64,000 bases of DNA. Origin: Mycobacteriales bacterium (GTDB taxonomy: Bacteria; Actinomycetota; Actinomycetes; Mycobacteriales; SCTD01). The DNA lies in contig JAUJOY010000002.1 of assembly GCA_030447385.1 (NCBI GenBank), positions 578,081 through 642,080 of the forward strand, given 5' to 3'. Under the pieces are notes generated by a model. That model was not told the DNA's origin, searched no databases, and worked only from the letters and a program-made list of their open reading frames with translations. The translations under genes and the position numbers were made by a program. This document shows positions 1,527 through 57,646 of the stretch, piece by piece; position 1 is the stretch's first letter; the number at the start of each line of letters is the position of its first letter.

Positions 1527-2768
1527 ATGGTGCTCGCGCAACGACAGGAGCGGTCAGCAGCCCCCCGAGCCAGTGCCGTGGTCATGGGTGACACCGACCT
1601 GCTGCGGCCACTCGGCATGAGCGGGGTGCGGGCGGCGGTGGTAGCGCCTGCGTCGTCGCCGGCCCATCAATCTCGCTTCGCTGCCGGGCGCATCCCCTGG
1701 TCCGGCGCCTGGGAGGAGTCAGAGGCGCTCGTGGAGGAGCTTCTGCGATTCGCGGAGGACAACTTCGATGAGCCGGTTCCGCTGTTCTACCAGTACGACA
1801 GGCACCTGCTGCTCGTGTCGCGGCACAGGGGACGGCTGGCGGAGCGCTACCGCTTCGTCCTGCCACCTGGGGAACTGGTCGAGGATCTCGTCGACAAGGT
1901 GCGCTTCGAAGCCCTGGCCCGGCGAATGAGTCTGCCTGTCCCGGCGACAACCATCCTGGCCGCCGACCACGACCCGCCAGAACCGGGAAGGCTGAGCTTC
2001 CCGGTGCTGCTCAAGCCGGGGATCCATCTCGGCGACGCCTGGCTGCTGGTGGAACCCGAGGCCAAGGCGGTGCTGGTCCACTCGTGGGAGGAGCTCAGGA
2101 GTCTCTGGCCGCGAGTGCGCGCGTCGGGTGTAGCGATGCTTGCGCAGGAGGTGGTGCCGGGACCCGAGTCGCGCATCGAGAGCTACCACAGCTACGTCGA
2201 TGCGGCCGGTTCGCTTGTTGCGGAGTTCACCGGGAGGAAGATCAGAACTCGGCCGGCCCAGTTCGGCTACACCACAGCTCTGAGCATCACCGAGGCTGAG
2301 GACGTCCGGGTGCTCGGTCGGCAGCTCGTGGCGGCCCTGAACCTGCGGGGGGTGGCAAAGCTGGACTTCAAGCGCACGCCGGACGGATCCCTTCGCCTGC
2401 TCGAGGTCAACCCGCGGTTCAACCTCTGGCACCATCCGGCCGCTGTCGCCGGAGTGAACCTGCCAGCGATGGTCTGGGCAGATCTGACGGGCGGTCCCCG
2501 TCCGCCGTCGTTCCACGCTCGGCCCGGAGTGCGCTGGAGCAATCCATGGCAGGACCAGGCGGCCGCCCGGGAGACCGGGGTAGGTGGCCTGCAGTGGGCC
2601 TGGTGGACGCTGCGCTGCGAGTCCAGGCACGTGGTCTCGCGCGATGACCTTCGGCCTCTCGTCCACGGCATCGGTGTCCGCGGGCGCCGGGCGCTGCTTC
2701 GAGCGTTCGCCCGTCTTCGCCGGCAGGAGAGCCCTGCACCCGCGACCATGACGCTCGGGCAGTCCTGA
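1527..2768 (+). CDS. ATP-grasp domain carboxylate-amine ligase-like protein
   Basis: Lies within ORF 1263-2768. ATG 1527 follows a GGTGAAGGGGA RBS-like stretch. Motif strings FPVLLKP, AQEVVPG, ESYHSYVD and LEVNPRF fit the ATP-grasp fold. High GC3. Confidence 0.65.
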   Translation: MVLAQRQERSAAPRASAVVMGDTDLLRPLGMSGVRAAVVAPASSPAHQSRFAAGRIPWSGAWEESEALVEELLRFAEDNFDEPVPLFYQYDRHLLLVSRHRGRLAERYRFVLPPGELVEDLVDKVRFEALARRMSLPVPATTILAADHDPPEPGRLSFPVLLKPGIHLGDAWLLVEPEAKAVLVHSWEELRSLWPRVRASGVAMLAQEVVPGPESRIESYHSYVDAAGSLVAEFTGRKIRTRPAQFGYTTALSITEAEDVRVLGRQLVAALNLRGVAKLDFKRTPDGSLRLLEVNPRFNLWHHPAAVAGVNLPAMVWADLTGGPRPPSFHARPGVRWSNPWQDQAAARETGVGGLQWAWWTLRCESRHVVSRDDLRPLVHGIGVRGRRALLRAFARLRRQESPAPATMTLGQS

Positions 2769-2777
2769 GAGGCCAGC

Positions 2778-3578
2778 ATGCGCTACGGGCTCATCTCGGA
2801 CGTCCACGCCAACCTCGCTGCGTTGGAGGTGGCGGTGAACGTTCTGGCACGGGAGAGCGTCACCGCGCTCCTGTGTGCCGGTGACATCGTGGGCTACGGC
2901 CCGCAGCCAAACGAGTGCATCGGGCTGCTGGGCGAGGCGCGGGCCACCTGCGTCGCCGGCAACCACGACCTGCTGGCCCTCGGACAGCTCGACGACCGGC
3001 GCAGCGGCACGTTGGCTAAGAGCACATCGGCCTGGACACGCGCCCAGTTGGGATCAGCCGAACGTGACTACCTGGCCGGCCTTCCACTCGTAGCCCACGC
3101 GGCCGGCCTCGTGATGGCGCACGGCTCCACAGACAACCCCGAGAAGTACGTGTGGCCAGGCGCTTCGGCCAACGCGGAGTTGAGGGTGGCCGGCCGGCGG
3201 TGGCCGTCCAGCCACTTCCTGGTTCTCGGTCACACGCATCGCCAGGCCGTCATCGGTCAGACGACCGGGACGCATCGGCTGCGCGGTGACACCACGATCC
3301 TCCTGCCGCCCGCCGAGCGGACCCTGATCAACCCGGGCAGCGTCGGCCAGTCCCGGGAACGGGAGGCGCGTCCACGCGTCCGCTTTGCGCTTCTCGACAC
3401 CGACGGGTGGTGCGTGACCACCTTCAGCCGGGACTACGACGTAGCCGCTACACGCAGCCTGTTGACCGCTCACGGCCTACCCGAGTCGTCACTGCACCTG
3501 CGCCCGACGAACCGGGGTGTTGCCCTCAGGGCGGTACGACGCTCGGCGGTCGCCGTAGCGGGGCGTGGACGTGCCTGA
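2778..3578 (+). CDS. Calcineurin-like metallophosphoesterase
   Basis: Ordered motifs SDVHAN, GDIVGYG, GNHD and GHTH. Confidence 0.8.
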   Translation: MRYGLISDVHANLAALEVAVNVLARESVTALLCAGDIVGYGPQPNECIGLLGEARATCVAGNHDLLALGQLDDRRSGTLAKSTSAWTRAQLGSAERDYLAGLPLVAHAAGLVMAHGSTDNPEKYVWPGASANAELRVAGRRWPSSHFLVLGHTHRQAVIGQTTGTHRLRGDTTILLPPAERTLINPGSVGQSREREARPRVRFALLDTDGWCVTTFSRDYDVAATRSLLTAHGLPESSLHLRPTNRGVALRAVRRSAVAVAGRGRA

Positions 3579-30216: not shown

Positions 30217-31128
30217 GTGCTGCTCGTGACTCCAGGAGCGGACCGGCGCCGGGGGCCGCTGCGCGCGGGCGACCAGGTGCAGCTGACCGACCCCAAGGGC
30301 CGGATGCACACGATCACCCTCGAGCCGGCGCGGCAGTTCCACACCCACAAGGGGATCCTCGAGCACGACAGCCTGCTCGGCGGCCCCGAGGGCGTCGTCG
30401 TGATGATCGGCGGAACCGCCTACCTCGCGCTGCGCCCCCTGCTCAGCGACTACGTGCTGTCGATGCCGCGTGGTGCGCAGGTGGTCTATCCGAAGGACGC
30501 CGGCTCGATCGTGCAGATGGCCGACATCTTCCCCGGCGCGCACGTCGTCGAGGCGGGCGTCGGATCGGGCGCGCTGTCGATGTCGCTGCTCAGGGCGGTG
30601 GGGGAGTCGGGGCGTCTCACGTCGTACGAGCGGCGGGCGGAGTTCGCGGAGATCGCCGTCGCCAACGTCGAGCGCTTCTTCGGCGGACCGCACCCGGCCT
30701 GGACGGTGAAGGTGGGCGACCTCGTGACGGCCCTGAACGAGACCGACGTCGACCGGGTCGTGCTCGACATGCTGGCTCCGTGGGAGGTGGTCGACGCGGT
30801 GTCCGCTGCCCTGCGGCCCGGCGGGCTGGTGTGCTGCTACCTCGCGACGACGACCCAGCTGTCGGCCACCGTGGAGACGCTGCGCTCGCACGGCACCTTC
30901 ACCGAGCCGCAGTCGTGGGAGTCGCTGGTGCGCGGCTGGCACGTCGAGGGGCTCGCCGTCCGGCCCGAGCACCGGATGGTCGGGCACACCGGCTTCCTGT
31001 GCACCGCCCGCCGGCTGGCCGACGGCGTGCAGCCACCGGTACGCCGCAGGCGGCCCAGCAAGGGAGCACCCGCAGAGCCCGGCGCCTCGCCGGAGCGGGC
31101 CGAGCCGCTGCGCCCCGAGCTGCCCTAG
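30217..31128 (+). CDS. trmI: tRNA (adenine58-N1)-methyltransferase
   Basis: [12 protein letters not shown]...FHTHKG N-domain and [14 protein letters not shown] motif. Conserved position upstream of arc. Confidence 0.85.
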
Positions 31129-31270
31129 GGCTTCGCCGGTGCCGGCCGGGGAAGGTCGTCCCCCCGCCGCGCGACCCGCTGTTGTCCGGGTAAGGGGGGC
31201 GCGAACGGGCTCGACGTACATAGGATGCGACCAGTACGGCAGTCTCCCTCGGATCAGGGTGGTGAGGTAC

Positions 31271-33046
31271 GTGGCAGGAGCGCGCGGAAGCGCCTCGGGC
31301 GACGACGCCCAGGCCAGGAAGAACCTCGAGCTCGCGGAGCTCACGGCGCAGATCGGCTACCTCGAGCAGGAGGTCGCGGTCCTGCGGCGCAAGCTGTCGG
31401 ACACCCCGATGCAGGTGCGGGTCCTCGAGGAGTCCCTCGCCCAGGCGCGCGCCAGCCTGGCCGGCGTCAGCGGCCAGAACGACCGCCTCGTCGGCACGCT
31501 GCGCGAGGCGCGCGCCCAGATCGTCGCCCTCAAGGAGGAGGTCGAGCGGCTGGCCCTGCCGCCCAGCGGCTACGGCATCTTCCTGTCGAGGCACGACGAC
31601 GGCACCGTCGACATCTTCACCGGCGGCCGCAAGCTCCGGGTGACCGTGAGCCCGACCGTCGAGGTCGACGACCTCCAGCGCGGCCAGGAGGTCATGCTCA
31701 ACGAGACGCTCAACGTCGTCCTGGCCCTGGCCTTCGAGCGTCAGGGCGAGGTCGTGCTGCTCAAGGAGCTGCTCGAGGGCGGCGACCGCGCGCTGGTGAT
31801 CGGGCAGACCGACCAGGAGCGGGTCGTGATGCTCGCCGAGTCCCTTGCCGACTCGCCGCTCAAGGCGGGCGACTCGCTGCTGCTCGAGACCCGCAGCGGC
31901 TACGTCTACGAGCGCATCCCGAAGTCCGAGGTCGAGGAGCTGGTCCTCGAGGAGGTGCCCGACATCGACTACGGCGACATCGGCGGCCTCGCCGCGCAGA
32001 TCGAGCAGATCCGGGACGCCGTCGAGCTGCCGTTCCTGCACAAGGAGCTGTTCAAGGAGCACCAGCTGCGTCCGCCGAAGGGCGTGCTGCTCTACGGGCC
32101 CCCCGGGTGTGGGAAGACGCTCATCGCCAAGGCCGTCGCGAACAGCCTGGCCAAGAAGGTGGCGCTGGTCACCGGCAAGCCGGACGGTCGGGCCTTCTTC
32201 CTCAACATCAAGGGTCCGGAGCTGCTCAACAAGTACGTCGGCGAGACCGAGCGGCACATCCGCCTGGTCTTCCAGCGGGCCCGGGAGAAGGCCTCGGAGG
32301 GCACCCCGGTCATCGTCTTCTTCGACGAGATGGACTCCATCTTCCGCACCCGCGGGTCCGGCATCTCCTCCGACGTCGAGACCACGATCGTGCCGCAGCT
32401 GCTGTCGGAGATCGACGGGGTCGAGACGCTCGAGAACGTCGTCGTGATCGGCGCCTCCAACCGCGAGGACATGATCGACCCGGCGATCCTGCGGCCGGGT
32501 CGGCTGGACGTGAAGATCAAGATCGAGCGCCCGGACGCCGAGGCGGCGAAGGACATCTTCGGCAAGTACATCCGTACCGACCTGCCCCTGCACGAGGACG
32601 ACCTGGCAGAGCACGACGGGTCCCGGGAGGCGACGGTCGCGGCGATGATCCAGCGCACCGTGGAGCGCATCTACACCGAGGACGAGGACAACCGCTTCCT
32701 CGAGGTCACCTACGCCAACGGCGACAAGGAGGTCCTGTACTTCAAGGACTTCAACTCCGGCGCCATGATCGAGAACATCGTGGCGCGGGCCAAGAAGATG
32801 GCGATCAAGGACTTCCTCGAGACCGGCGGCAAGGGGTTGCGGTTGCAGCACCTGATGACCGCGTGCATCGACGAGTTCAAGGAGAACGAGGACCTGCCCA
32901 ACACGACCAACCCCGACGACTGGGCCCGGATCTCGGGCAAGAAGGGGGAGCGGATCGTCTACATCCGCACCCTGGTCACCAGCGCGAAGGGCTCGGAGAC
33001 CGGCCGGTCCATCGACACCGTCGCCAACACCGGGCAGTACCTCTAG
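31271..33046 (+). CDS. arc: Proteasome-associated AAA ATPase ARC/Mpa
   Basis: Coiled-coil N-terminus, [18 protein letters not shown]-terminal GQYL. GTG 31271 follows GGTGAGG; start approximate. Confidence 0.9.
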
Positions 33047-42355: not shown

Positions 42356-43129
42356 ATGCGCATCGGACTGTCGGGCAAGGGTGGTGTGGGCAAGTCGACG
42401 ATCTCGGCTGTGCTGTCTCGGAGCCTGGGCCGCTCAGGCCACCAGGTGGTCGCGGTGGACTGCGACTCCGATCCCAACCTCGGGGTCAGCATCGGGCTCG
42501 GGGAGCAGGGCGCGGAGCGCATCCGCTCGATCCTGGACCAGTCCGGCGCGCAGCGGCACGTGCCGACCGACCTCTCGCCCAGCGAGCTCCTGGACCGCTA
42601 CGGCTACGCCGCGCCGGACAACGTGACGGTGATGCTGGCTGCCCGCTCGGAGAAGGCGGGCTCCGGTTGAACGGGCAGCGCCCACGTCACGGTCCGTGAC
42701 TTCATCGACAACGCGAACCGCACCCTGCCCGACGCCATGGTGGTCGCCGACATGGAAGCGGGCCTGGAGCACCTGTCCTGGGCCGGGGGGACCCTGCGCT
42801 ACGCCGACCTGCTGCTCGTGGTCCTCCAGCCGACGGGAAAGGTGATGCTGACGGCGGACCGCATGCATCGCCTTGCCGTCGACCTCGGGATCGCCGACAT
42901 CGCCTTCGTCGGCAACCGCGCGGGTGAGGCCGACCGCCAGCGGCTCGAGGACTTCGCGGCCGAGCGGGGTCGCGAGCTTCTCGCGATCATCCCCGAGGAC
43001 GAGGCGGTGCTGCACGCCGACCAGCAGGGCGTGTGCGTGCTGGACTACGCACCGCAGTCTCCGGCGGTGCGCGCCATCCAGGGGCTGGCCGAGAAGATCG
43101 ACGCCAAGGCCCGGCACGCCCGGTCCTAG
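42356..43129 (+). CDS. CooC/MinD-type P-loop ATPase interrupted by in-frame TGA (42668-42670)
   Basis: GKGGVGKST deviant Walker A in the upstream part and ADMEAGLEHL in the downstream part, both in the same frame. The second part has no independent N-terminus. Confidence 0.6.
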
Positions 43130-43175: not shown

Positions 43176-44420
43176 TCAGCCGCGGGTGGCGCCCGTCAGG
43201 AAGGTCACCAGCCGGGCCACCGCCTCCTCGGAGCGCTTCGTGCTGGGAGCGGCAGCCACAGGTTCGTGATCCGCCGGCATGCCGGCACCGTTCGGCGCCG
43301 CCTCGCTCACGACGGCGAGCGACGGGCCGGACTTGGGTGCCACGAACGACTCGCCCGCCGGAAGGGCCCCCATCAGGGCCTTCTCGTCCGCTGCCGTGAC
43401 CAGGGTCGCCTTCTCGCCCCGCAGGAACAGCACCGGCACGTCGACCTTGGCGGCCAGCGCCGGCGGGTCGATCGAGAAGATGTCCTTGAGGTACTCCTGG
43501 TTGTCCTTCGGGAAGTAGCCGGTCAGCGACGGCGGGATCGTCGCCGGCAGCGCACCCGTGGCCAGAAGGGTCCCGACGGTCGCGCGCAGTCCGGGTACGT
43601 CGCCGTGCGGAGCCCCGGCGAAGTCGTCGGCAAGAACCTCCAGCAGCGGCCGCCCGGGGGCGGAGATCAGAGCCAGGCCACGGATGCGCGGCTCGCTGGC
43701 CGCGAGCTGCATGGCGGCCAGGCCCCCCTCCTCGTGGCCGATCACGGCAAGGCGCTTGGGGTCGACCTCGGAGCGCTCGGCGAGGAAGCTCACCGCGGCG
43801 CCCGCGTCAGCGACGATGTCCTCGAACCGCAGGGGCGTCCCCGCTGGGAGCTGGCTGCGTCCCGTACCCCGCTTGTCGTAGCGCAGTGTCACGACGCCTT
43901 CCTTGACCAGAGCCTCGCTCAGATCACGGTAGAGCGTGTCGGGGGTCCCGCCCCGCGTGGCCACGCCGTCGCGGGTCGTCGGCCCGAGGCCGTTCAGGAT
44001 GACCACCCCGGCCAGACCTGCCTGCGGTGCGGCCCGGTCCGGCAGCGTGAGCGTGCCGGAGATGCCGACGTCCCCGGCCCCGTCGAACTGCACGCCACGG
44101 CTCTGGACCCCGTCCGCCGCGAGCACCGAGCGGCGGGAGGTCTCAGACCCACCGCTTCCCGTCAGGGACGTCACGGCCACCATCGCCAGCAGCACGGCGA
44201 CGGTCACTCCCGCGACGGGGAGCAGCCAGGCGGGCCGTCCGCGCGGGCTGTTGCGGCCGAGCTGCTCGGTGCAGGCGGTGCACTTGATGCCGACGCTCGT
44301 CGGCACCATGCAGTCCCGGCAGATCGAGGACGAGCACCGTGTGCAGGTCGCCACCGCAGGCTTGCGCGAGTGGCGGCCGCAGGTCCTGCTCGCCTTCTCG
44401 GTGGTGGACGCGGAAGCCAT
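43176..44420 (-). CDS. Zinc-ribbon (B-box-like) - TM - alpha/beta-hydrolase-fold protein lacking the nucleophile Ser
   Basis: CGRH-x8-CTRC-x4-CRDC-x8-KCTAC, one TM helix, and a hydrolase fold with GHEEGG in place of GHSxGG. The ATG overlaps the ftsH stop by 1 nt. Confidence 0.65.
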   Translation of the reverse strand: MASASTTEKASRTCGRHSRKPAVATCTRCSSSICRDCMVPTSVGIKCTACTEQLGRNSPRGRPAWLLPVAGVTVAVLLAMVAVTSLTGSGGSETSRRSVLAADGVQSRGVQFDGAGDVGISGTLTLPDRAAPQAGLAGVVILNGLGPTTRDGVATRGGTPDTLYRDLSEALVKEGVVTLRYDKRGTGRSQLPAGTPLRFEDIVADAGAAVSFLAERSEVDPKRLAVIGHEEGGLAAMQLAASEPRIRGLALISAPGRPLLEVLADDFAGAPHGDVPGLRATVGTLLATGALPATIPPSLTGYFPKDNQEYLKDIFSIDPPALAAKVDVPVLFLRGEKATLVTAADEKALMGALPAGESFVAPKSGPSLAVVSEAAPNGAGMPADHEPVAAAPSTKRSEEAVARLVTFLTGATRG

Positions 44421-46339
44421 CAGCTGCTGACGGCGGCGGTGACCGGCTGAGCGCCGCCGACGGGGAGCAGGAGGGCGTCCAGAACCTCGCCCTCGAGGGT
44501 CTCGGCTTCCATCAGCGCCGTGGCCAGCGCCTCGAGCACGGAGCGCTGCTCGACGAGGACGGCGCGGGCGCGTTCTGCGGAGTCGGCAAGCACCTGCTGC
44601 ACCTCGGCGTCGATCTCCGAGGCGATGCGCTCGGAGAACGCCTGCGTCATGAGCCCCTCCTTCAACGCCGCGTTCTGCAGGGACTGGGCGGTGAACGCGC
44701 CGAGCCGCGTGCCCATGCCGAACTCGGTGACCATGCGCCGCGCCAGCTGGATGGCCGCGTCGAGGTCGCCGGTGGCGCCGGTGGACAGCTCACCCGTGAC
44801 GAGCTCCTCCGCCGCCCGCCCGCCGAGGAGGGCAGCGATCCGATCGAGCAGCTGCGCGCGGGTGATGGAGGTCTGGTCGCCCTCGCTGACCCACCAGGTG
44901 AAGCCGCCGCCGTGGCCGCGCGCCACGATCGAGAGCTTGCCGACCCGGTCGGTGCCCGACAGCGCCGTGGCCACGATGGCGTGACCCGACTCGTGGAAGG
45001 CGATGCGGTGGCGGTCCTGCGGCGACAGGATCCGGGTCTTGCGCTCCGGCCCGGCCACGAGCCGCTCGATCGCCTCGGAGAAGTGGGACTGCTCGATGAT
45101 GGTCGCGCCGCGACGAGCGGCAAGCAGCGCCGCCTCGTTGACGACGTTGGCCAGGTCGGCGCCGGAGAAGCCGGCGGTCCGCTTGGCCACCTCGTCGATG
45201 TTGACATTGTCCGCGAGCGGCTTGCCGCGCGTGTGGATGCCCAGGATGCCCTTGCGGCCGTTGACGTCCGGCCGCTCGACAGCGACCCGCCGGTCGAACC
45301 GGCCCGGGCGCATCAGGGCGGAGTCGAGGATGTCGGGGCGGTTCGTCGCCGCCAGGACGACGACCCCGATCCCGGACTCGAAGCCGTCCATCTCCACCAG
45401 CAGCTGGTTCAGGGTGGCCTCGCGCTCGTCGGTGCCGCCCATCGAGTGGGTGCTGCGGCCACGACCGACTGCGTCGAGCTCATCGATGAAGACGATGCAG
45501 GGCGCAGCGGCCTTGGCCACCTTGAAGAAGTCGCGGATGCGGGCAGCGCCGACACCGACGAAGATCTCGACGAAGTCTGAGCCCGAGATGGAGAAGAAGG
45601 GCACCTCCGACTCCCCTGCGAGGCCGCGCGCGAGAAGCGTCTTGCCGCATCCGGGTGGGCCGGTGAGCAGGATGCCCTTCGGGACCGATGCGCCCATGGC
45701 GAGGAACCGGTCCGGGTTCGAGAGGTAGTCCCGGATCTCGACGAGCTCCTCGATGGCCTCGTCCACGCCGGCGACGTCCGAGAAGGTGATCTTGGCCTCC
45801 CCGGTCTCCATGCGCTTGCCCCGGGAGCGGCTGAACGCCGAGAAGCCGTCGCTGCCGCGGCCGAAGGCCAGGAACAGGATGAACAGGCCGTCGATGATGA
45901 TCAGGGCGGGCAGCAGGAGGCTGACCGGGGTGACCAGGTTCTTCAGCGGCTGCTGCTTGACCGAGTAGGCCACACCCGCGTCCTCCAGCGCGCTCGTGAG
46001 GCGCGCGAAGATGGTCTCGTTGCCCCCCGAGTAGGCGACCCAGTACTGCCCCTCGTCGTAGGTGCCCACCATCCGGTTGTCGGTCTCGAGGATCGTCGCG
46101 TCCTGGATCCGGCCCTGGCGCAGCAGCGTCGTGAACTCGTCGATGCGCAGCTCCTTCCCGGGGCTGCGCGGGTTCGACAGGTACAGCACGAGGATGTAGA
46201 AGCCGACCAGCAGCGGAAGGGCGAGGATGCAGAGGGTCAACGCCCTCTTGCGGTTGTCGCGCTTCGGGTCGTCGTCGGTGTCCTCCGTGCCGGCCGAGCC
46301 GTCCTTGTCCCGCTTGCGGGCGCTACCGAGCATGGCCAT
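44420..46339 (-). CDS. ftsH: FtsH-family AAA+ zinc metalloprotease
   Basis: Two TM helices, [46 protein letters not shown]. Confidence 0.9.
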
Positions 46340-46357
46340 GGAGCTCCTTCGGTCTTC

Positions 46358-47734
46358 TCACGGTTGGAAACGTTCAGTGCAGCTCTGGGCGATCGGAGGC
46401 TTTCCGGGTGACGCCGCATCACCGGCGGCCACCAGGACGCTGCCATCCTTCAGCAGCACCGACGCCTGCTCGCTGCGAGGGCAGGCCATGTCGCCGGCCG
46501 GTAGCCACTCCCCGATGGCGCCGGCCTCGAAGTCGAAGATCTCGGCGCTGGTGAGGGAGCTGCGAGCACCGCGTTGCACGGACTCCCCTCCCACGACGAA
46601 CACCCGTCCGTCGTTCAGCCGCGTTGCCGTGTGCCCGGTACGCGTACTGCCCATCGGGCCGACCGTGCTCCAGGTGCCGGCCCTCGAGTCGAACAGCTCC
46701 GCCGTCGCGAGGGAGATGTCCCCGGCGTCGCCTCCGGACCCTCCGCTCAGGAGGACCGCGTTGTCGCCGAGCAAGACCGCCGCGTGGTTGGTCCGGGCCC
46801 CGTTGAGGTTGCTGGACCCGACGAAGGCCTTCGCCGCCGGGTCGTAGATCTCGGTCGAGGCGAGGGGCTTCTCACTTCCGCCGGCCGCTGCCGGGCCGAG
46901 CCCGCCGGCCACGACCACCCGTCCGTCCCGCAGTCGGGTGGCGGTGTGCTCGAAGCGTCCGGTTGCCATGGAACCGGTCGACGACCAGGTCCCGGTCTTG
47001 GGGTCGAAGAGCTCTGCGGTCGGGGCTGCGGGGATCGGCTGCCCGCCCGTGGCATCCAGCGTGCTGCCCCCGGCCACCAGCACCTGGCCGCTGTTGAGCA
47101 GCGTCAGGGAGTGGCCCAACCGGGCAGCGCCCATAGGCTGCACGGCAGACCACGTGCGGGTCGCTGGGTCGTACACCTCGGCAGATGCCAGCAGCACTCC
47201 GTTAGCCAGGCCCCCGGCCACGAGGACCCGACCGTCGTTGAGCAGGGCCGCCTGATGACCGCGCCGGGGTTGCGCCAGCGGGCCGACCTCCTGCCAGGCC
47301 TGCGCGCCAGGAGTCAGGACCTCGGTGGCCCCTATCGCCAAGGCACCGACACCGCCGCCGGCGACGACCACGCTGCCGTCGCCGAGTACGAGTGCCGTCG
47401 CCGTTCCGCGGATGGCCGAGAGATCGGGGGCGTCGGTCCACACGCCGACCGGCGCGGCCGCGACCTGATCGGCCGGGTCGCTCGACGACGGCCGAAGCGC
47501 CAGGATGGCCACGAGCAGGCCGATGGCCACCAGGGCCCCGCCGATCAGGAGCAGAGGCGTGCGCGACCTCTGGGCCGCGACGCTGGGGCCCGGGACGGGG
47601 GCTGCGCACGTCGCGCACTTCAGGCCTACCTCGGTGCGGTTCATGCACTTCGGGCACAGCGGCTGGCCGCAGTCGACGCAGGTGAGCCTGGTCGCCTCAC
47701 CGTGCGCCTCGCAGCTGCGTGTCTGTGTTGCCAT
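46358..47734 (-). CDS. Zinc-ribbon (B-box-like) - TM - Kelch-repeat beta-propeller protein
   Basis: CEAH-x7-CVDC-x4-CPKC-x8-KCATC, one TM helix, then six or so repeats of the type TW....M...R.GH....L.DGRV.V.GG. Confidence 0.7.
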   Translation of the reverse strand: MATQTRSCEAHGEATRLTCVDCGQPLCPKCMNRTEVGLKCATCAAPVPGPSVAAQRSRTPLLLIGGALVAIGLLVAILALRPSSSDPADQVAAAPVGVWTDAPDLSAIRGTATALVLGDGSVVVAGGGVGALAIGATEVLTPGAQAWQEVGPLAQPRRGHQAALLNDGRVLVAGGLANGVLLASAEVYDPATRTWSAVQPMGAARLGHSLTLLNSGQVLVAGGSTLDATGGQPIPAAPTAELFDPKTGTWSSTGSMATGRFEHTATRLRDGRVVVAGGLGPAAAGGSEKPLASTEIYDPAAKAFVGSSNLNGARTNHAAVLLGDNAVLLSGGSGGDAGDISLATAELFDSRAGTWSTVGPMGSTRTGHTATRLNDGRVFVVGGESVQRGARSSLTSAEIFDFEAGAIGEWLPAGDMACPRSEQASVLLKDGSVLVAAGDAASPGKPPIAQSCTERFQP

Positions 47735-48145
47735 CTCTCGCTTTCCGCGGTGCGCCGGGCGGGCGGTATGACCCGAAGGTCGCTTCCCACCGGATATTAG
47801 TCACGGGTGTGTCCGTCATGCTCTGACGCCTGCCGCCCAGCGACGGCTGCCGCCCGGTGCCTCGTCCGGCTGAGCGCCCGCGGTCCAGGTCGAGCGATGC
47901 CTGGGCACGCTTCCGAGGCGGAGGTGGAGCATCCCCTGACGACCTCCCGCCGGTCGGCGCGCATACCAGCGGCGGGGGCTCAGAAGGCCGGTTCACAGCC
48001 TCGACGAGAACGTCAGGCGTCACACCGAAGAAGCTGTCGTCGTGCAACAACGGGCGACCATCGATATCCGCAGTCAGCGCGAATGTCGAAAGCCTAGTGC
48101 TGTCAGGGGGCTATATGTCAGCGCACTATCAGCAGAGCGCAGTTA

Positions 48146-48174
48146 TTGCCCCTCGGCGGCGGCTCCTTCATAGT
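48146..48174 (+). promoter_or_regulatory. Candidate promoter (TTGCCC-17-CATAGT) upstream of surface-protein gene A
   Basis: The hexamers and the flanking tattgcccc string are conserved at the equivalent position upstream of copy B, although the surrounding sequence has diverged. Confidence 0.25.
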
Positions 48175-48277
48175 CGTGTGCAGGTACGACCCCGGTGCTC
48201 GCTGTTTCGCGCGGCCCCGGATTCGCAGGCGCTGGAGTGCGCAGTCGGCGCCACACCACGGACTAGGAGATTTGCTG

Positions 48278-48868
48278 ATGATCGGCAAGAGGTCCCTCTC
48301 GGTGGCGTTCAGCGCCGCTGTGGCAGGCATGGTTCTGTTCGCCGGCGTCGCCTACGCCTGCACCAACCTGGCGACGCTCAACCTGAGCACCGCGAGCGGC
48401 AGCGTCGGTGACACCGTCACCGTCACCGGCTCCTCGTTCCGCACCCCGGCCAAGGCCACCGATGCGGTGATGCCGGTGTCGCTGAGCTGGAACGGCGCCG
48501 ACGGCCCGGTCCTGGCGCAGACCGTGCCGGACGCCGCGGGCAACATCTCCGCCACCTTCACCGTGCCCGAGGGTCAGGCCGGGTACTACGTGATCCTGGC
48601 CAAGCAGCTCGACGCCAAGGGTGTGGACGCCTACGGCACCCCGGCCCGCGCGGCGTTCCAGATCCTGGGCGCCAACGGTGAGTCCGTGGTGACCCCGCAG
48701 ACCAGCCAGACCCCCGCGGTCAGCGAGGGCAACGGCGCGGGCATCCTGGCCCTGACCGTCGGTCTGGGTGCGCTGGGCCTGAGCCTGTTCGCCGCGGGCT
48801 TCACCGCCTTCGCCCGCCAGGCCCGCCGCCAGGAGGTCCCGGCCACGGCCAAGGTGCGCAACAACTAG
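48278..48868 (+). CDS. Tail-anchored secreted Ig-like surface protein, copy A
   Basis: Signal peptide ending AYA/C, Ig/IPT-like module (SGSVGDTVTVTGSSF), and a C-terminal TM helix with a basic tail. Confidence 0.7.
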   Translation: MIGKRSLSVAFSAAVAGMVLFAGVAYACTNLATLNLSTASGSVGDTVTVTGSSFRTPAKATDAVMPVSLSWNGADGPVLAQTVPDAAGNISATFTVPEGQAGYYVILAKQLDAKGVDAYGTPARAAFQILGANGESVVTPQTSQTPAVSEGNGAGILALTVGLGALGLSLFAAGFTAFARQARRQEVPATAKVRNN

Positions 48869-48900
48869 CCTGCATCACCTCCCACCTCGCGGTGGGACCG

Positions 48901-48936
48901 CCACAACGGGCGCCCCTGCCGGGGCGCCCGTTGTGG
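48901..48936. terminator. 16-bp perfect stem / 4-nt loop hairpin between convergent genes
   Basis: ccacaacgggcgcccc tgcc ggggcgcccgttgtgg, preceded by a smaller cccacc/ggtggg hairpin. No U-tract. Confidence 0.55.
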
Positions 48937-48961: not shown

Positions 48962-49822
48962 TCAGCCGCGGGTGGAACCCCCGGTCGCCGACGCCGGTGG
49001 GACCTCGACACAGCCCGCATCCGCACCGAGCAGCCGCAGCCCGGCGCGGTCACCGATGCCGAACTCGGCCGTGGGCGACGTGTGTCCGCCCAGTTCCGGA
49101 TACATCAACTGCGCCCGGCCGCTGACGTGTCCCAGGCCGACGACATGACCGAGCTCGTGAAGGATCACGCGACCTCTGGTGACGCCGGCACCGAATCCGT
49201 CCGGCAGTGTGGCTCCGGTATTGCGGTCGATGACCGCGTCGACGTTCAGCTCGAGGACCCCGCTGACGAGGACGTCACCGGCGCGGAGCGGCCGACTGCG
49301 ACCGAGCACGATCACGTCGTCCCCGACCGGGTCCGGGCCCTCTCCCAGACCTAGCTCGGACCAGCCGACGAGAATCGGGGCCCAGCGCTGCCCGTACCGC
49401 TCGGGCTGGTAGGGCCGGCGCGCGATGACCGGCTGCTCGTCCGAGCGTCCCTCTTCGACGAAGGGGATGCCGCTCGCCTCGGACAGCCGCGCGAAGGCCG
49501 CCCGTACGTCCTCGACGCCGCCCGGCGGTGCCAGGGACGCGTTGAGCACGTAGGGGACCGGGGCACATGGGTTGAACCGGGCCGGGAAGCAGCCGTTCTC
49601 ACCGGCCGCGAACAGGAACGTGTAGCCGGTGGCCGGCAGCTGCCTGCGCTCACCGTGGGAAGCACTGCCGATGCGTCCCTCGGCGGGACAGGCCGCCGAA
49701 GGAGGCTCCGGGTCGAGGCGCTCGTCGTCGCCTCCGCCCGCGCGCACCGCGGCTGACAGGGCCACGGCGCCTGCGAGTGCCACTGCGCCCAGTGCCGCAG
49801 CCCGGCCGGAGGGCTTTGTCAC
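48962..49822 (-). CDS. Secreted metzincin (matrixin/M10-like) zinc metalloprotease
   Basis: Signal/TM N-terminus, HELGHVVGLGH, then a Met-turn (QLMYP). Confidence 0.75.
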   Translation of the reverse strand: MTKPSGRAAALGAVALAGAVALSAAVRAGGGDDERLDPEPPSAACPAEGRIGSASHGERRQLPATGYTFLFAAGENGCFPARFNPCAPVPYVLNASLAPPGGVEDVRAAFARLSEASGIPFVEEGRSDEQPVIARRPYQPERYGQRWAPILVGWSELGLGEGPDPVGDDVIVLGRSRPLRAGDVLVSGVLELNVDAVIDRNTGATLPDGFGAGVTRGRVILHELGHVVGLGHVSGRAQLMYPELGGHTSPTAEFGIGDRAGLRLLGADAGCVEVPPASATGGSTRG

Positions 49823-49920: not shown

Positions 49921-51750
49921 CTAGACAGTGCGCACGCCCGCCGCGGTCTCGCGTCGACGCACGAGCAGGGCCAGCAGGACGAACAGCAAGCCGACCACCA
50001 GCAGACCGATGACTCCCGCGAGCACGTACTTCAAGGTGCTCGACGTACCGGACTCCAGCTCCTCGAACTGCACGGCCGACATGAAGATGTCCTGGCCCTG
50101 GGTCACGGAGTCGAACATCCGGGTGTCGTCCCAGGCAACGAGTGCGTAGGCCTCGGTCGAGGCGATCCCCGGTGGGCCGTTCAGGTCGAAGTTCTGGGCG
50201 AACACCCCGATGCGGCGGTCGATCGACCTGTCGCTGATCCGGACGTTCTTCGACCAGCTGGCGCCGTTGTCGGACGAGTGCGCGTAGTAGACGTCGTTGC
50301 TGGTGATGCCGGGATCAGCCCGGGTGTCGAACCAGGCCACGTCCAGGCGACCGTCCGGCGCGATGCTCAGGTTGGGAAGGCCGCTGAAGAAGAGTTGCTT
50401 CGGGTCGTCGTCGTTGACCACCATCGGCTCGCTCCAGGTCTGTCCCCGGTCCGTCGATCGACGGTAGAAGACGTCCGCCTCACTGGCGACCTCCGGCGTC
50501 CGGGAGCCCTCGTAGACGAGGTGCAGGGTGCCGTTCTCCCCGCCTTGCGGGCTCCAGACGAGGTCCAGGCCGCCGAAGTTGTTGACGTTGTCCTTGGCGA
50601 ACGGAGTGATCTGGAAGACCTCGGTGGTCTTGCCCTGGTCGGAGGTTCGGGTGATGAAGTGAGCGGGCCGGGTCGTCCCCTTGATGTTCTGGTAGCTCGT
50701 GACCCATGCGGCGTAGGCGGTTCCCTTGTCGTCCACGGCCAACGAGGGGTTGCTGCCTCCGAAGTTCACCTGCTGGTCAGGACTCGAGGCGGGAGAACCG
50801 GGCGGTGGTGGACCGGACGCGGAGGGAGAGGGCCGCGGTGATGGAGAGGGGGAGGCGAGAGGAGACGCCGGCGCCCCTTCGTTCGGCGCAACGGGCGACG
50901 CGCTTGCGGAGGCCGTCGGGGACGCGGCAGCCGAGGCGTTCGGGGACGCAGCAGGGGAGACCCCAGGGGAGGCCCCCGGGGATGCGGCGGCGGCAGGCGC
51001 CGCGGAAGGAGTGGGGGGTACCACGACCTTGAGGGCCTCGGCGCGCACCGCTGGGTCGGCGAACTTCTGGCCGACGAGGTTGATCGGCTCCGAGAAGGTG
51101 GCCCCGCCATCGGTGGACACCGACATGACCGGGATGTTGGGCTTCCGGTTCGGGTCGGTGAGCCGGTTCTGCTGCCGCCAGCTGACGTAGAGCACGTCCT
51201 GCTCACCGCTGGTGTCCACGACGAAACCGGAGATCGGGCGGTTCGGCTCCTGCTTCTCGCCGGTCAGGCCACGGGTGTCCCGGACGATGGTCGTCTGCCA
51301 CGTCTTGCCCATGTCCTCGGAGCGTCCGACCAGCACGCTGCGGTTGGCCGCATCCTGGGTGTCCCAGCCGGCGAGGGCGTAGTAGAGCCGCTTGTCGGAC
51401 CCGAAGGCGAGCTTGCCCTGGATGGTGTGGCTGTTCGTCATCAGGCACAGCGGGTAGTTGTCCGGCGAGGGGGACGACTCGAGCGGCTCCCAGGTCTGAC
51501 CCCCGTCGAAGGACTGCATCGTCCCGCAGACCTGGGTGCGCAGGTCGACAGCCGACGCGAGGATGTGCAGCGGGTCTTCCGGGTCGACGGCGAAGTCCGG
51601 CACGCCGTAGGTCCGTGCGGGGGAGAGGTTGAACTTGGTGGCCTGGACCGGTGCGGTCACCTGCACCCGTTCCTGCGCCAGCACCTGCGTCTGGACCGGG
51701 GCCAGCGTCGCCGCCAGCAGGACACATGCCGCCACAGTCCGCTTCTTCAT
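49921..51750 (-). CDS. BNR/Asp-box repeat beta-propeller protein with C-terminal TM anchor
   Basis: Signal peptide from MKKRTVAAC. Six S-x-D-x-G-x-T-W-type boxes (SFDGGQTW, SEDMGKTW, STDGGATF, TSDQGKTT, STDRGQTW, SSDNGASW). An internal Pro/Ala/Ser-rich insert of about 85 aa. TM plus RRRE tail. Confidence 0.75.
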   Translation of the reverse strand: MKKRTVAACVLLAATLAPVQTQVLAQERVQVTAPVQATKFNLSPARTYGVPDFAVDPEDPLHILASAVDLRTQVCGTMQSFDGGQTWEPLESSPSPDNYPLCLMTNSHTIQGKLAFGSDKRLYYALAGWDTQDAANRSVLVGRSEDMGKTWQTTIVRDTRGLTGEKQEPNRPISGFVVDTSGEQDVLYVSWRQQNRLTDPNRKPNIPVMSVSTDGGATFSEPINLVGQKFADPAVRAEALKVVVPPTPSAAPAAAASPGASPGVSPAASPNASAAASPTASASASPVAPNEGAPASPLASPSPSPRPSPSASGPPPPGSPASSPDQQVNFGGSNPSLAVDDKGTAYAAWVTSYQNIKGTTRPAHFITRTSDQGKTTEVFQITPFAKDNVNNFGGLDLVWSPQGGENGTLHLVYEGSRTPEVASEADVFYRRSTDRGQTWSEPMVVNDDDPKQLFFSGLPNLSIAPDGRLDVAWFDTRADPGITSNDVYYAHSSDNGASWSKNVRISDRSIDRRIGVFAQNFDLNGPPGIASTEAYALVAWDDTRMFDSVTQGQDIFMSAVQFEELESGTSSTLKYVLAGVIGLLVVGLLFVLLALLVRRRETAAGVRTV

Positions 51751-51938
51751 CGTGTAAGTCCCCAGAGGTAGGTCATCCTGGCCGTCCGGACGGACCACCA
51801 GGTAGGTCGGGCGAGGGCTAGCGCCGAGCGCCGCTCGGCTTTCGGGCATGCGGGCGACCAGCCCGTCCGGCGCCCGCTGTCCGGGCTCCTCGCGCGCCGG
51901 GCGGGCCGGGGCATGGTCGTGCGGGTGGCGCTGGTCGG

Positions 51939-52971: not shown

Positions 52972-53068
52972 GTGGCGGGCGGTAAGCCGCTCGTGCAGAT
53001 CTTCCGCCGGCGGTCCCACTGCACGCTGAGGCTTCCGCCCCGGCGTTCCACGATCCGGAGGCACGCTG

Positions 53069-53659
53069 ATGATCGGCAAGAGGTCCCTCTCGGTGGCGTT
53101 CAGCGCCGCTGTGGCAGGCATGGTTCTGTTCGCCGGCGTCGCCTACGCCTGCACCAACCTGGCGACGCTCAACCTGAGCACCGCGAGCGGCAGCGTCGGT
53201 GACACCGTCACCGTCACCGGCTCCTCGTTCCGCACCCCGGCCAAGGCCACCGATGCGGTGATGCCGGTGTCGCTGAGCTGGAACGGCGCCGACGGCCCGG
53301 TCCTGGCGCAGACCGTGCCGGACGCCGCGGGCAACATCTCCGCCACCTTCACCGTGCCCGAGGGTCAGGCCGGGTACTACGTGATCCTGGCCAAGCAGCT
53401 CGACGCCAAGGGTGTGGACGCCTACGGCACCCCGGCCCGCGCGGCGTTCCAGATCCTGGGCGCCAACGGTGAGTCCGTGGTGACCCCGCAGACCAGCCAG
53501 ACCCCCGCGGTCAGCGAGGGCAACGGCGCGGGCATCCTGGCCCTGACCGTCGGTCTGGGTGCGCTGGGCCTGAGCCTGTTCGCCGCGGGCTTCACCGCCT
53601 TCGCCCGCCAGGCCCGCCGCCAGGAGGTCCCGGCCACGGCCAAGGTGCGCAACAACTAG
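53069..53659 (+). CDS. Tail-anchored secreted Ig-like surface protein, copy B (identical protein to copy A)
   Basis: The 196-aa translation is identical to 48278-48868. Confidence 0.7.
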   Translation: MIGKRSLSVAFSAAVAGMVLFAGVAYACTNLATLNLSTASGSVGDTVTVTGSSFRTPAKATDAVMPVSLSWNGADGPVLAQTVPDAAGNISATFTVPEGQAGYYVILAKQLDAKGVDAYGTPARAAFQILGANGESVVTPQTSQTPAVSEGNGAGILALTVGLGALGLSLFAAGFTAFARQARRQEVPATAKVRNN

Positions 53660-53691
53660 CCTGCATCACCTCCCACCTCGCGGTGGGACCG

Positions 53692-53727
53692 CCACAACGG
53701 GCGCCCCTGCCGGGGCGTCCGTTGTGG
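53692..53727 (+). terminator. Hairpin, copy of 48901-48936 with one G-U wobble
   Basis: ccacaacgggcgcccc tgcc ggggcgtccgttgtgg. Confidence 0.5.
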
Positions 53728-55462: not shown

Positions 55463-55930
55463 CTAGGGCTGGGCCCCGACGCGGCTGGGCGCGGCGGTGC
55501 GAGCCCGGAAGAGCAGGCACCAGCCGACACCGAGCAGCAGCACTGCCAGCCCTGGCGTGCTGTGGTGCAGCGTCGCCCCCCAGGGCGCCTCGCCGCGGGT
55601 GGCCTGCAGGACCAGGGGAAGGTGCGTCGCGTCCATCCAGAGGCCCGCCACCAGGATGACCAGCCCTACACCGAACAGCGGTCCCATCGTGGTCGCGCGG
55701 CGCCCGATCAGCAGCGCGAGCAAGGAGACCACGATGACCAGCGTCCCAGGCACCACGTGGTCGACGAACTCCAGCTGGTCGCCGCGGGGGCCGAGCTCGA
55801 GACGAGGTCCGCCGTACCGGGGCAGCAGCGCCCACGTACCGACCAGGACTCCGAGACCCGCCAGCATCGGGACGGCGGCCAGGCGCCGCCGGGCCAGCGC
55901 CGCATCGGGTGCACTCGTGCTCTTGGTCAT
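55463..55930 (-). CDS. Small four-TM membrane protein
   Basis: Hydrophobic segments. ATGA overlap with the upstream BNR gene. Confidence 0.5.
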   Translation of the reverse strand: MTKSTSAPDAALARRRLAAVPMLAGLGVLVGTWALLPRYGGPRLELGPRGDQLEFVDHVVPGTLVIVVSLLALLIGRRATTMGPLFGVGLVILVAGLWMDATHLPLVLQATRGEAPWGATLHHSTPGLAVLLLGVGWCLLFRARTAAPSRVGAQP

Positions 55931-57459
55931 GCCTCGGCTCCTGTCGGCTGCGTGCGCGGTCGCGCCTGCTTGCGTATCAGCGTAAGGACGGCCACCACCG
56001 CAACCAGGCCGGACAGCAGGATCAGGACGGGGGCCGTACGGCTCAGCGGGCCTCCCGAGCCGAGCGTCACCGTCGCCGCGAAGACGTCCTGTCGGCCGGT
56101 GTTCACGTCGCCCAGCCGCGTGTCGGTCCAGCTGGCGAGTGCTTCCCTCTCGGTGCTCACCAGGCCGAGCCGGGTGCCGAAGTCGGTGCCGTACTCCGGC
56201 CCGAAGGTGGGACCGACGGCCGAGCTGAACGGCTGCGAGGACACCCGCACGTTGGTGAACGTGTCGCGGCCGTTGTCGGACGAGGCGAGGTAAACCTCCG
56301 TCTGCACATCGGCGGGATCGCCGCGGCGGTCGTAGAACAGCACATCCACCCGGCCGTCGGGCGCAACAGCGACGCGCGGGAGGTACTGGCTCGTGCCGTC
56401 TGCCATGGCGTTGTCGTTCACCCTCGTGGCATCGGACCAGGTGCCCCCGCCGTCCTCCGAGCGGCGCAGGAAGACGTCTTCGTTGCCGTTGCGGCCGTCG
56501 GCCCAGGCGACGGAGAGGGAACCGTCCGGGCCGGCCGCGAGCGAGGGGTAGTCCGGCAGGAAGACGAGGAAGCGGCGCGCGGGGACGAAGTTCGACTCGA
56601 TCTCCACGCCCTGGCCGAAGGTCCTGCCGCCGTCGGTGGACCGGGTGACCACCAGCGCGTACGGGTCCTCGGCTACCGGTCCCTGCAGCCCGCCGAAGTT
56701 GCGCCGGTCGTTCTTGAAGTCCTGGTAGAGGACGACGACGTCGCCACCGGAGTCGATGACCGGACTGGCCGCGCCGACCCGCTCGCGGGAGGCATCGCTG
56801 ACCGCCACCGGAGTGGAGAAGGTGCGTCCGCCGTCCCCCGACCGAGCGGTGACGACGCGGGCCGGGCCGACCAGCTGGTTGAGGCCCACAGCCTCGGCGT
56901 CCAGCCAGACGAGGTGGACGCTGCCAGCGTCGTCCACCACGACGCGCGGTTGGAAGGAGAGCTCACCGGCGACGCGGACAGGCTGCTCGAGGGTGCGACC
57001 ACCATCTGTGGAGCGAGCGAGCCAGAGGGCCGCCGGCGTGTTGCCGCGCCCCTGCAGAGAGAGGTAGACGACGTACAAGGTGCCGTCCGGCCCGAAGGCG
57101 ACGTCGGCCGCGAAGGGGCAGGGCTTCTGCTCGGGCGAGGCGGCACACGGCTCGGTGCCGGCGGGCAGGGGGAGCGAGGTCGGCTGCCAGGTGGCACCAC
57201 CGTCCGCGCTCCACTCGAGCAGCGCGGAAAAGCCCGGCCGGTCGATGCGGTGCGCGACGACGGCGCGACGGCGATCGTCCGGATCGGTCGCCACGGTCGG
57301 AGAGTTGTTCACCGAGATGACGCCCGGCGGGTTCACGAGGACGTTGGCGCCGACGGTGGTCTCGCCCCCGGTCCGGTAGAGCGTCGCCGCCGCCACGAGC
57401 GCGGCCACCAACCCGAGGCACATCGCCGCGAGACCCACCGCGGTCTTCCGGTCTGTCAT
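55927..57459 (-). CDS. BNR/Asp-box repeat beta-propeller protein with N- and C-terminal TM segments
   Basis: SADGGATW, STDGGRTL, SGDGGRTF, STDGGRTF, SEDGGGTW, SSDNGRDT. Start taken at MTDRKTAVG. Confidence 0.75.
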   Translation of the reverse strand: MTDRKTAVGLAAMCLGLVAALVAAATLYRTGGETTVGANVLVNPPGVISVNNSPTVATDPDDRRRAVVAHRIDRPGFSALLEWSADGGATWQPTSLPLPAGTEPCAASPEQKPCPFAADVAFGPDGTLYVVYLSLQGRGNTPAALWLARSTDGGRTLEQPVRVAGELSFQPRVVVDDAGSVHLVWLDAEAVGLNQLVGPARVVTARSGDGGRTFSTPVAVSDASRERVGAASPVIDSGGDVVVLYQDFKNDRRNFGGLQGPVAEDPYALVVTRSTDGGRTFGQGVEIESNFVPARRFLVFLPDYPSLAAGPDGSLSVAWADGRNGNEDVFLRRSEDGGGTWSDATRVNDNAMADGTSQYLPRVAVAPDGRVDVLFYDRRGDPADVQTEVYLASSDNGRDTFTNVRVSSQPFSSAVGPTFGPEYGTDFGTRLGLVSTEREALASWTDTRLGDVNTGRQDVFAATVTLGSGGPLSRTAPVLILLSGLVAVVAVLTLIRKQARPRTQPTGAEA

Positions 57460-57646
57460 CGGCGCAGATACTAGGTGCAGGGGTGCCGGCAGAGCGCTAG
57501 ATGCGCTGTGCACCTAGTGATCTCGTGCTCCTGGCTTCGATATGCTCCGTGACCAGCGAGAACCGGAAGCGAGGAGCCACAGGGTGATGTCGACCCGGCG
57601 TGACGGGCGAACCGCGGGCCGACCGGATGCCTCGGGCGGCGGGGTG

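Follow-up and report, generated by a model that had tools for sequence, protein, structure and literature searches.

A B-box-like, probably cytoplasmic head shared by two membrane proteins encoded on either side of ftsH in a conserved actinobacterial operon

We describe here a three-gene operon centred on an FtsH membrane protease, located in a 64,000-nucleotide stretch of DNA from a Mycobacteriales bacterium (GenBank assembly GCA_030447385.1, contig JAUJOY010000002.1, positions 578,081 to 642,080 of the forward strand), which was analysed as a whole and is referred to below as the window. An earlier note, made from the letters of this DNA, had described three packed minus-strand genes encoding a Kelch propeller protein, FtsH and a protein with an alpha/beta-hydrolase fold, the first and last with a transmembrane (TM) helix behind a cysteine-rich N-terminus. 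The open reading frames (ORFs) bear out this order to the nucleotide (Table 1), and Pfam and NCBIfam uphold all three domain assignments. The 18 nt from the Kelch stop codon to the first ATG of ftsH include the sequence GAAGGAG, and the ftsH stop codon overlaps the start of the hydrolase gene (cTGATGg). This TGATG overlap and the short Shine-Dalgarno gap indicate that the genes of the operon are translationally coupled, and the same pattern of overlaps or short gaps is seen in the loci of relatives. The public call for ftsH begins at an ATG two codons further downstream, which gives a protein of 637 aa and a gap of 24 nt. Since the nearest gene upstream (411 nt away) is divergent and the nearest gene downstream (46 nt away) is convergent, the transcription unit should comprise the Kelch, FtsH and hydrolase genes. 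A scan with promoter (sigma-70) and terminator consensus sequences gave no match; at 71% G+C the promoter result carries no information.

Table 1. Features of the ftsH operon and its surroundings; coordinates are those of the window.
Feature	Coordinates	Strand	Details	Basis
Gene 1, B-box - TM - seven-bladed Kelch propeller	46358-47734	minus	458 aa	ORF, Pfam
Gene 2, FtsH	44420-46339	minus	639 aa	ORF, TIGR01241, Pfam
Gene 3, B-box - TM - alpha/beta-hydrolase fold	43176-44420	minus	414 aa	ORF, Pfam
Predicted B-box head of gene 1	47606-47713	minus	residues 8-43	ligand-spacing regular expression
Predicted TM helix of gene 1	47495-47554	minus	about residues 61-80, LLLIGGALVAIGLLVAILAL	sequence
Spacer before ftsH	46340-46357	minus	18 nt, Shine-Dalgarno GAAGGAG	sequence
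Predicted B-box head of gene 3	44271-44381	minus	residues 14-50	ligand-spacing regular expression
Predicted single TM helix of gene 3	44163-44231	minus	about residues 64-86	sequence
Upstream intergenic region	47735-48145		shared with the divergent gene, presumed promoter region	ORF layout
BNR/Asp-box propeller protein	49921-51849	minus	secreted, C-terminal TM anchor	Pfam BNR_2, 3.6e-13
M10 (matrixin-like) zinc metallopeptidase	48962-49822	minus	secreted	Pfam Peptidase_M10, 27 bits against 24

Both proteins that flank FtsH begin with the same cysteine-rich head, and in each a single hydrophobic helix comes 15-20 residues behind it. In the Kelch protein the head has the form C-x2-H-x7-C-x2-C-x4-C-x2-C-M-x4-VGLKC-x2-C, with C8, H11, C19, C22, C27, C30, C40 and C43 as candidate ligands, and in the hydrolase-fold protein the form C-x2-H-x8-C-x2-C-x4-C-x2-C-M-x4-VGIKC-x2-C, with C14, H17, C26, C29, C34, C37, C47 and C50. 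A regular expression for this ligand spacing, applied to all six frames of the window, matches these two heads only. The 90-residue N-termini of the two proteins align in BLASTP with E = 7e-08 and 32% identity, and the match runs through the TM segment. The earlier note had seen here one zinc-ribbon module with a single TM helix; a homologous eight-ligand head and helix on both proteins are what stand of this, and the zinc ribbon gives way to another class of finger. Both proteins match the Pfam family PF00643 (zf-B_box; 25.2 bits for the Kelch protein and 24.6 bits for the hydrolase-fold protein, against a gathering threshold of 24.1), and the head is best classed, from its sequence, as a B-box1-like binuclear finger with eight ligands and not as a four-ligand zinc ribbon. 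Comparison of PDB sequences with a profile of 48 heads likewise gave the B-box1 of MID1 and the B-boxes of TRIM54, TIF1-beta and TRIM63 as the best matches, all of them only marginal (E 0.004-0.1). An AlphaFold2 (AF2) model of the head of gene 3 alone has a pLDDT of 90. Zinc would presumably be the bound metal in both heads.

Across the family the spacing is C-x2-H-x7/8-C-x2-C-x4-C-x2-C-x9-C-x2-C. The first seven ligands are invariant in the alignment of heads, whereas at the last position at least 90% of rows have Cys and the others Asp; this exchange of the final Cys for Asp (KCExDA), a ligand swap typical of B-boxes, characterises a large clade of the Kelch proteins. The ligands of the Kelch head are invariant among 40 aligned orthologues and the hydrolase head is conserved in 32 homologues. 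In the Kelch protein the head has a mean pairwise identity of 78% (73% when the ligands are left out), compared with 63% in the propeller and about 40% across linker and TM helix; in the hydrolase family the head reaches 60% and the fold 52%. That the head is the most conserved segment of the Kelch protein fits a conserved binding partner in the cytoplasm. The TM helix of gene 1 is preceded by the basic stretch QRSRTP, and we infer an N-in topology with a cytoplasmic head, because of the positive-inside rule and because a Cys-rich zinc module needs a reducing compartment.

The regions beyond the TM helices have nothing of this in common, so that one head is carried by two unrelated outside-facing domains, as the earlier note had proposed. 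In the first protein, five Pfam Kelch families match with E values from 1e-18 to 1e-34 (Kelch_4, 1.6e-34), and seven 'DG.V.V.GG' blades can be made out in the sequence. Its orthologues make up more than 120 full-length clusters. Two cysteines of the last blade, C418 and C452, are invariant in the alignment, which fits an oxidising, extracytoplasmic location. Two more specific readings of the propeller were considered and set aside: the matches to GlxA and Glyoxal_oxid_N that might have pointed to a copper-radical oxidase are weak and far under the cut-offs, and for a sialic-acid function (a NanM-like Kelch protein beside BNR 'sialidase-like' neighbours) the NanM score is 28 bits against cut-offs of 256-416.

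The ectodomain of the third gene product matches Pfam Hydrolase_4 (4.8e-14, 52.7 bits against 27). Its AF2 model (pLDDT 85, with helix 72-85 in the TM region) retrieves PET46, MHETase-like enzymes, feruloyl esterases and monoglyceride lipases in Foldseek, with E values down to 3e-20 and a TM-score, normalised to the target, of about 0.8. The nucleophile elbow reads GHEEGG in the window protein (G228-G233) and GH[EGDQ][ED]GG in 43 homologues, none of which has the catalytic Ser at the nucleophile column (E, G, D or Q stand there instead). In a profile alignment to the solved esterases MHETase and PET46, Ser is replaced by Glu, Asp by Ala or Thr and His by Pro, the Asp and His sites of the window protein falling at about R334-T339 and about G364-L367. 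The protein is thus a pseudo-enzyme, with the full triad lost across the family, and its ectodomain would therefore be a binding domain. Both ectodomains, then, look like binding folds and not like enzymes, and the dead hydrolase would be a further example of a bacterial pseudo-enzyme serving as an ectodomain. Some B-box-hydrolases carry an additional C-terminal cupredoxin (Copper-bind) domain (proteins P0035, P0036 and P0040, and the gene at 925-2514 of locus L143).

The FtsH encoded between them scores 696.8 bits with TIGR01241 (cut-off 600), has two N-terminal TM helices and the Pfam domains FtsH_ext, AAA, AAA_lid_3 and M41, and finds its best relative in the PDB in full-length FtsH (7tdo, 532 bits). 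Walker A (GPPGCGKT), Walker B (IVFIDELD), the pore loop (FVEIFVG), the second region of homology (SRH) and HEXXH can all be recognised. The unusual Walker A, the pore loop (FVE[IM]FVG) and HEXXH are kept in 14 complete orthologues, the regular expressions missing Walker B in three of these and the SRH in one, and all 14 share a highly charged N-terminal cytoplasmic tail of 30-55 residues (the N-terminal 33 residues in the window protein). Judged by these motifs the protease is likely to be catalytically intact, and GPPGCGKT together with the charged tail would mark it as a distinct, recognisable subfamily. No second ftsH lies within the window. Its sole other AAA match is the proteasomal ATPase Mpa/ARC, with OB domains (30737-33046, plus strand), which identifies the organism as a member of the Actinomycetota with a proteasome system. 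No hpt, tilS or folE gene is called in the annotated flanks of those related loci that were looked up; beyond the window, the sequence covered here comprises flanks of up to 10 kb at related loci.

The three genes belong together well beyond this genome, in a group of uncultured Actinomycetota. An FtsH-centred scan of species-representative genomes gave 49 FtsH loci, to which loci reached from homologues were added. Fifteen loci, from about ten metagenome-assembled genomes (MAGs) labelled Acidimicrobiales, Egibacteraceae, Propionibacteriales, Mycobacteriales or Actinomycetota, encode an FtsH at least 69% identical to that of the window. A B-box-Kelch gene lies directly upstream of ftsH in 15 of the 15 (L010 being cut off at that point), and a B-box-hydrolase gene directly downstream in all except L007 and L008/9; by contrast, none of 43 loci whose FtsH is at most 53% identical has a B-box ORF within 8 kb. 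A Kelch-centred metagenome scan gave 80 loci, 29 of them with a B-box. The two scans pooled yielded 43 B-box-Kelch loci, 37 of which have readable sequence past the gene, and FtsH is encoded beside the B-box-Kelch protein in 35 of these 37. As for the other two, L066 is truncated after an inserted BNR gene (in its sibling L067, ftsH follows that insertion) and the contig of L085 ends 450 nt past the Kelch gene. FtsH is encoded near none of 50 Kelch homologues that lack the B-box (identity 49% or less). The earlier note had named a lack of co-conservation between the head proteins and this FtsH as one outcome that would refute it; in these loci the two are co-conserved.

The linkage also outlives rearrangement. 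In L080 the order is FtsH, B-box-hydrolase, B-box-Kelch; in L142 the genes for FtsH and the B-box-hydrolase face a convergent pair for the B-box-Kelch and a BNR protein; and in L143 FtsH is followed by a B-box-hydrolase with a C-terminal cupredoxin domain. The B-box-Kelch protein and FtsH form the constant core, which the hydrolase often joins as a third member. Genes for an ArsR-family regulator and a cation-diffusion (Zn/Co-type) efflux pump take the place of the hydrolase gene after ftsH in L008/9 and L063-65. This replacement occurs in the Kelch clade with Asp as the last B-box ligand, and it may link the system to metals.

These neighbourhoods also bear on the comparison with anti-sigma or site-1/site-2 cascades that the earlier note had drawn. 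In an arrangement of that kind the ectodomain would act as a sensor, the protein would be cleaved, and FtsH would free a transcription factor that the zinc head had kept bound. ZAS-type anti-sigma factors, with their regulated intramembrane proteolysis, do indeed have a similar layout, in which a zinc head and a single TM helix are joined to a sensor on the outside. However, the zinc motif differs (H-x3-C-x2-C in ZAS), as presumably does the fold, the head matching the B-box and not zf-HC2, and neither flanking protein has a match to zf-HC2 or RskA. The operon and its flanks contain no M50 gene, and a sigma factor, any other DNA-binding partner and a site-2 protease are absent from them in the window and in about 45 related loci. 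We therefore drop the analogy and regard such a cascade as highly improbable. A fragment of an RskA-type anti-sigma gene does occur in L005, 8 kb away from the operon and unrelated to it.

The head is not confined to these two proteins. A full HMMER scan of 1.84 billion representative proteins with the head profile (cut-off E <= 0.001) returned 1848 protein clusters. Among the best 146 of these the head stands almost always at the N-terminus and ahead of a TM helix; some members contain two or three B-boxes in tandem, along with four to six TM helices. Pfam assigns zf-B_box to 120 of the 146, an alpha/beta hydrolase to 13, DUF4352 to 12, Kelch to 9, Rhomboid to 9, PD40 to 3 and DPPIV_N to 2. 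An abundant type of head, 'CYRHPxRETGVSCSNCGRPICPDCM', forms the N-terminus of actinobacterial rhomboid proteases, and a B-box is likewise recorded in an older survey of rhomboids from mycobacteria (PMC2989971). The idea of a shared handle with exchangeable ectodomains is borne out in this wider setting, of which the operon is one case. The direct fusion of the same head to rhomboid proteases (9 of the 146, and the CYRHP-type heads) suggests that it behaves as protease equipment and not as a degradation tag. Three tandem B-boxes are found in P0193, P0213, P0278 and P0318; such proteins continue either with several TM helices (314-340 aa) or with a single TM helix and then a large ectodomain (629-673 aa). 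Public gene calls often begin at an internal Met or Val, so that the B-box is cut or lost (L005 11319-12662; L145 about 2040-3332; the mis-started entries include P0013, P0031, P0033, P0105 and P0112, among others), and the architecture is therefore under-reported in databases.

The reading that we prefer, with a probability of about 0.45, makes the B-box proteins dedicated partners of FtsH in this operon, as adaptors or as regulators. FtsH would be co-expressed with single-pass proteins that have a cytoplasmic B-box inside and a non-enzymatic binding domain outside. The B-box, about 15-20 residues from the inner face of the membrane, would lie at the level at which substrates enter the AAA+ ring of FtsH, and would either dock on the protease or hold the cytoplasmic peptide of a client. 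The ectodomain would bind a ligand or protein of the envelope, possibly the BNR propeller, the M10 peptidase or the immunoglobulin-like (Ig-like) proteins encoded nearby, and events outside the membrane would in this way decide what FtsH degrades. We infer both the physical contact between heads and FtsH and the direction of control. The partnership is favoured because the linkage is strict and tolerant of rearrangement and the genes are translationally coupled, because the non-ligand surface positions of the head are conserved and the ectodomains appear to be non-enzymatic, and because the same head is built into rhomboid proteases. It is favoured, too, because there is a precedent in YqgP of Bacillus subtilis, a membrane protein with a metal-binding cytosolic N-domain that binds FtsH and has been shown experimentally to be an adaptor (Began et al., 2020, PMC7231995). 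YqgP ties a rhomboid-type architecture to FtsH. It differs from the proteins described here in being a multi-pass rhomboid, encoded outside any ftsH operon, whose N-domain is not a B-box and whose client is MgtE, whereas the operon proteins are single-pass, have large ectodomains and are candidate partners of FtsH only.

Several observations weigh against the partner reading. The link between heads and FtsH rests on gene neighbourhood within a lineage that may be fairly narrow, so that the locus counts are inflated by shared ancestry. A search for similar folds with the head gave no significant B-box match. In L145, the locus of a more distant B-box-hydrolase, no FtsH is encoded within 10 kb, and in the L068 clade the hydrolase encoded after FtsH is a lipoprotein that has no B-box, so the head is not indispensable for the place of the hydrolase in the cluster.

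Co-occurrence and coupling would fit equally well if the B-box proteins were regulated substrates of FtsH. On this alternative, if zinc were lost or the seven cysteines became oxidised, about 60 cytoplasmic residues would unfold and give FtsH a handle to pull on, whereas the folded head leaves a tail of 7-13 residues, too short for FtsH to grip; the proteins would be removed when zinc is scarce or under thiol stress. Residue 8 is indeed the first ligand of almost every complete Kelch orthologue, and in the hydrolase orthologues the first ligand falls at residues 6-21; FtsH, a weak unfoldase, usually requires some 10-20 unstructured residues in the cytosol to degrade a membrane protein (PMC13039401). 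The ArsR regulator and efflux pump that replace the hydrolase in L008/9 and L063-65 hint at metals as well. A degron, however, would be an odd thing to find as part of rhomboid proteases themselves, the non-ligand positions of the Kelch head are conserved beyond the needs of a switch between folded and unfolded states, and stoichiometric co-translation with the protease itself is more typical of the partners in a complex. We consider regulated turnover of this kind somewhat unlikely, yet it is the strongest competitor of the partner reading.

The genes around the operon allow yet another view. Homologues of the BNR propeller are encoded near the triad in most loci, and in L067, L068, L079, L083-85 and L142 they lie on the Kelch/FtsH strand, between these genes or beside them. 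The copy in the window has a signal peptide and a paralogue at 55927-57513 (minus strand), and the BNR propeller may be a fourth component or a client. Homologues of the M10 peptidase, 62-72% identical, adjoin the hydrolase gene in L001-4, L011 and L013-15; the window protein has the motif HELGHVVGLGH. Kelch, pseudo-hydrolase, BNR, M10 and Ig-like genes might accordingly form a set for envelope proteins, with FtsH as general quality control and a role of the B-box, in oligomerisation or signalling, that does not depend on FtsH. The order of the recurrent BNR, M10 and Ig-like genes around the triad varies between loci, the B-box/TM head is found on many unrelated proteins (the 1848 clusters), L145 shows that at least one B-box-hydrolase does without FtsH nearby, and eukaryotic B-boxes are generally known to mediate self-association, as in TRIM proteins. 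On the other hand, none of the other neighbours comes near the constancy of the tightly coupled Kelch-FtsH pair, the Kelch homologues without a B-box have no adjacent FtsH, and the protease is of a recognisable subfamily (GPPGCGKT, charged N-tail of 30-55 residues) and not a generic copy. An envelope set that merely includes an FtsH is, in our judgement, unlikely.

Returning to the partner reading, we can place the operon among known systems. A role for B-boxes in the processing or stability of membrane proteins was reportedly predicted by Burroughs, Iyer and Aravind in Mol Biosyst in 2011. Their proposal that prokaryotic B-boxes act together with membrane-associated peptidases is summarised in PMC4506424; in the class so outlined a cytoplasmic B-box at the N-terminus precedes the membrane-spanning part, and a membrane protease is tied to it by fusion (rhomboid) or by gene neighbourhood. 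The operon fits this class: the B-box precedes a TM helix in most of the 146 proteins, rhomboid fusions occur, and FtsH is the neighbour. The statement of the earlier note that no system of this composition had been described must accordingly be narrowed. The general link between B-box and membrane peptidase was put forward in 2011, as far as the summary in PMC4506424 goes, and rhomboid heads are common. Literature searches turned up no experiments on FtsH together with bacterial B-box proteins. What may be new is a well-conserved FtsH operon with candidate B-box partners acting in trans, of a general kind that had already been predicted in outline.

Other comparisons are looser. HflK and HflC are also single-pass proteins with large extracytoplasmic domains, and they assemble with FtsH and modulate the access of substrates; they have SPFH domains and almost no cytoplasmic part, whereas the operon proteins contain no SPFH domain by Pfam and their conserved element would be cytoplasmic. 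The eukaryotic TRIM/RBCC proteins have a zinc finger of the same family by sequence (PF00643) and direct other proteins to degradation, but the operon encodes no RING, coiled coil or ubiquitin system, its proteins are membrane-anchored, and the protease is an AAA+ metalloprotease. A bolder generalisation, which we think doubtful, would make the B-box/TM head a general docking handle for membrane proteases, built into rhomboids and acting in trans for a dedicated FtsH; interchangeable ectodomains (Kelch, dead hydrolase and others) would then steer AAA+ proteolysis without a sigma factor, in a bacterial forerunner of the eukaryotic TRIM-type targeting of proteins for degradation.

FtsH is the universal quality-control protease for membrane proteins. 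To our knowledge very few adaptors for it are known, and little has been described of how extracytoplasmic events reach it. The operon is a defined and conserved candidate for study, in which a recognisable FtsH subfamily is accompanied by one or two putative partners whose most conserved part would be a cytoplasmic B-box. Zinc fingers of this family are otherwise familiar from the ubiquitin ligases of eukaryotes. Should the heads indeed bind FtsH, the in-silico prediction of 2011 would gain an experimental footing, the presence of a B-box on actinobacterial rhomboids would be explained, and membrane proteins could be sent to FtsH by means of a handle that can be transplanted.

Two further observations concern genes next to the operon. 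The Ig-like protein, which is secreted with a C-terminal TM anchor and has homologues near the triad in other loci, is encoded twice in the window (48146-48868 and 53030-53659), and a direct duplicate of 663 bp with 99.85% identity (48274-48936 and 53065-53727) spans most of the gene; the repeat reflects either a duplication in the recent past or an artefact of the assembly. The convergent gene downstream of the operon (42356-43129, plus strand) encodes a CooC/ParA-like ATPase and contains an in-frame TGA at 42668-42670 ('EKAGSG*TGSAH'). In the column of this codon orthologues have Cys (L011, L015, L059 and L060) or TGA (L061 and L012), and a paralogous type has 'PGC[PL]*CG' (L085 and L007). 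The codon probably specifies selenocysteine within a metal-binding Cys motif. A hairpin of 5-7 bp lies 15-18 nt downstream in the TGA-bearing copies and is missing from the Cys-bearing ones; taken alone it is no more stable than shuffled sequences, and the window contains no selenocysteine tRNA (tRNA-Sec). In public annotation the gene is broken into two ORFs (L139).

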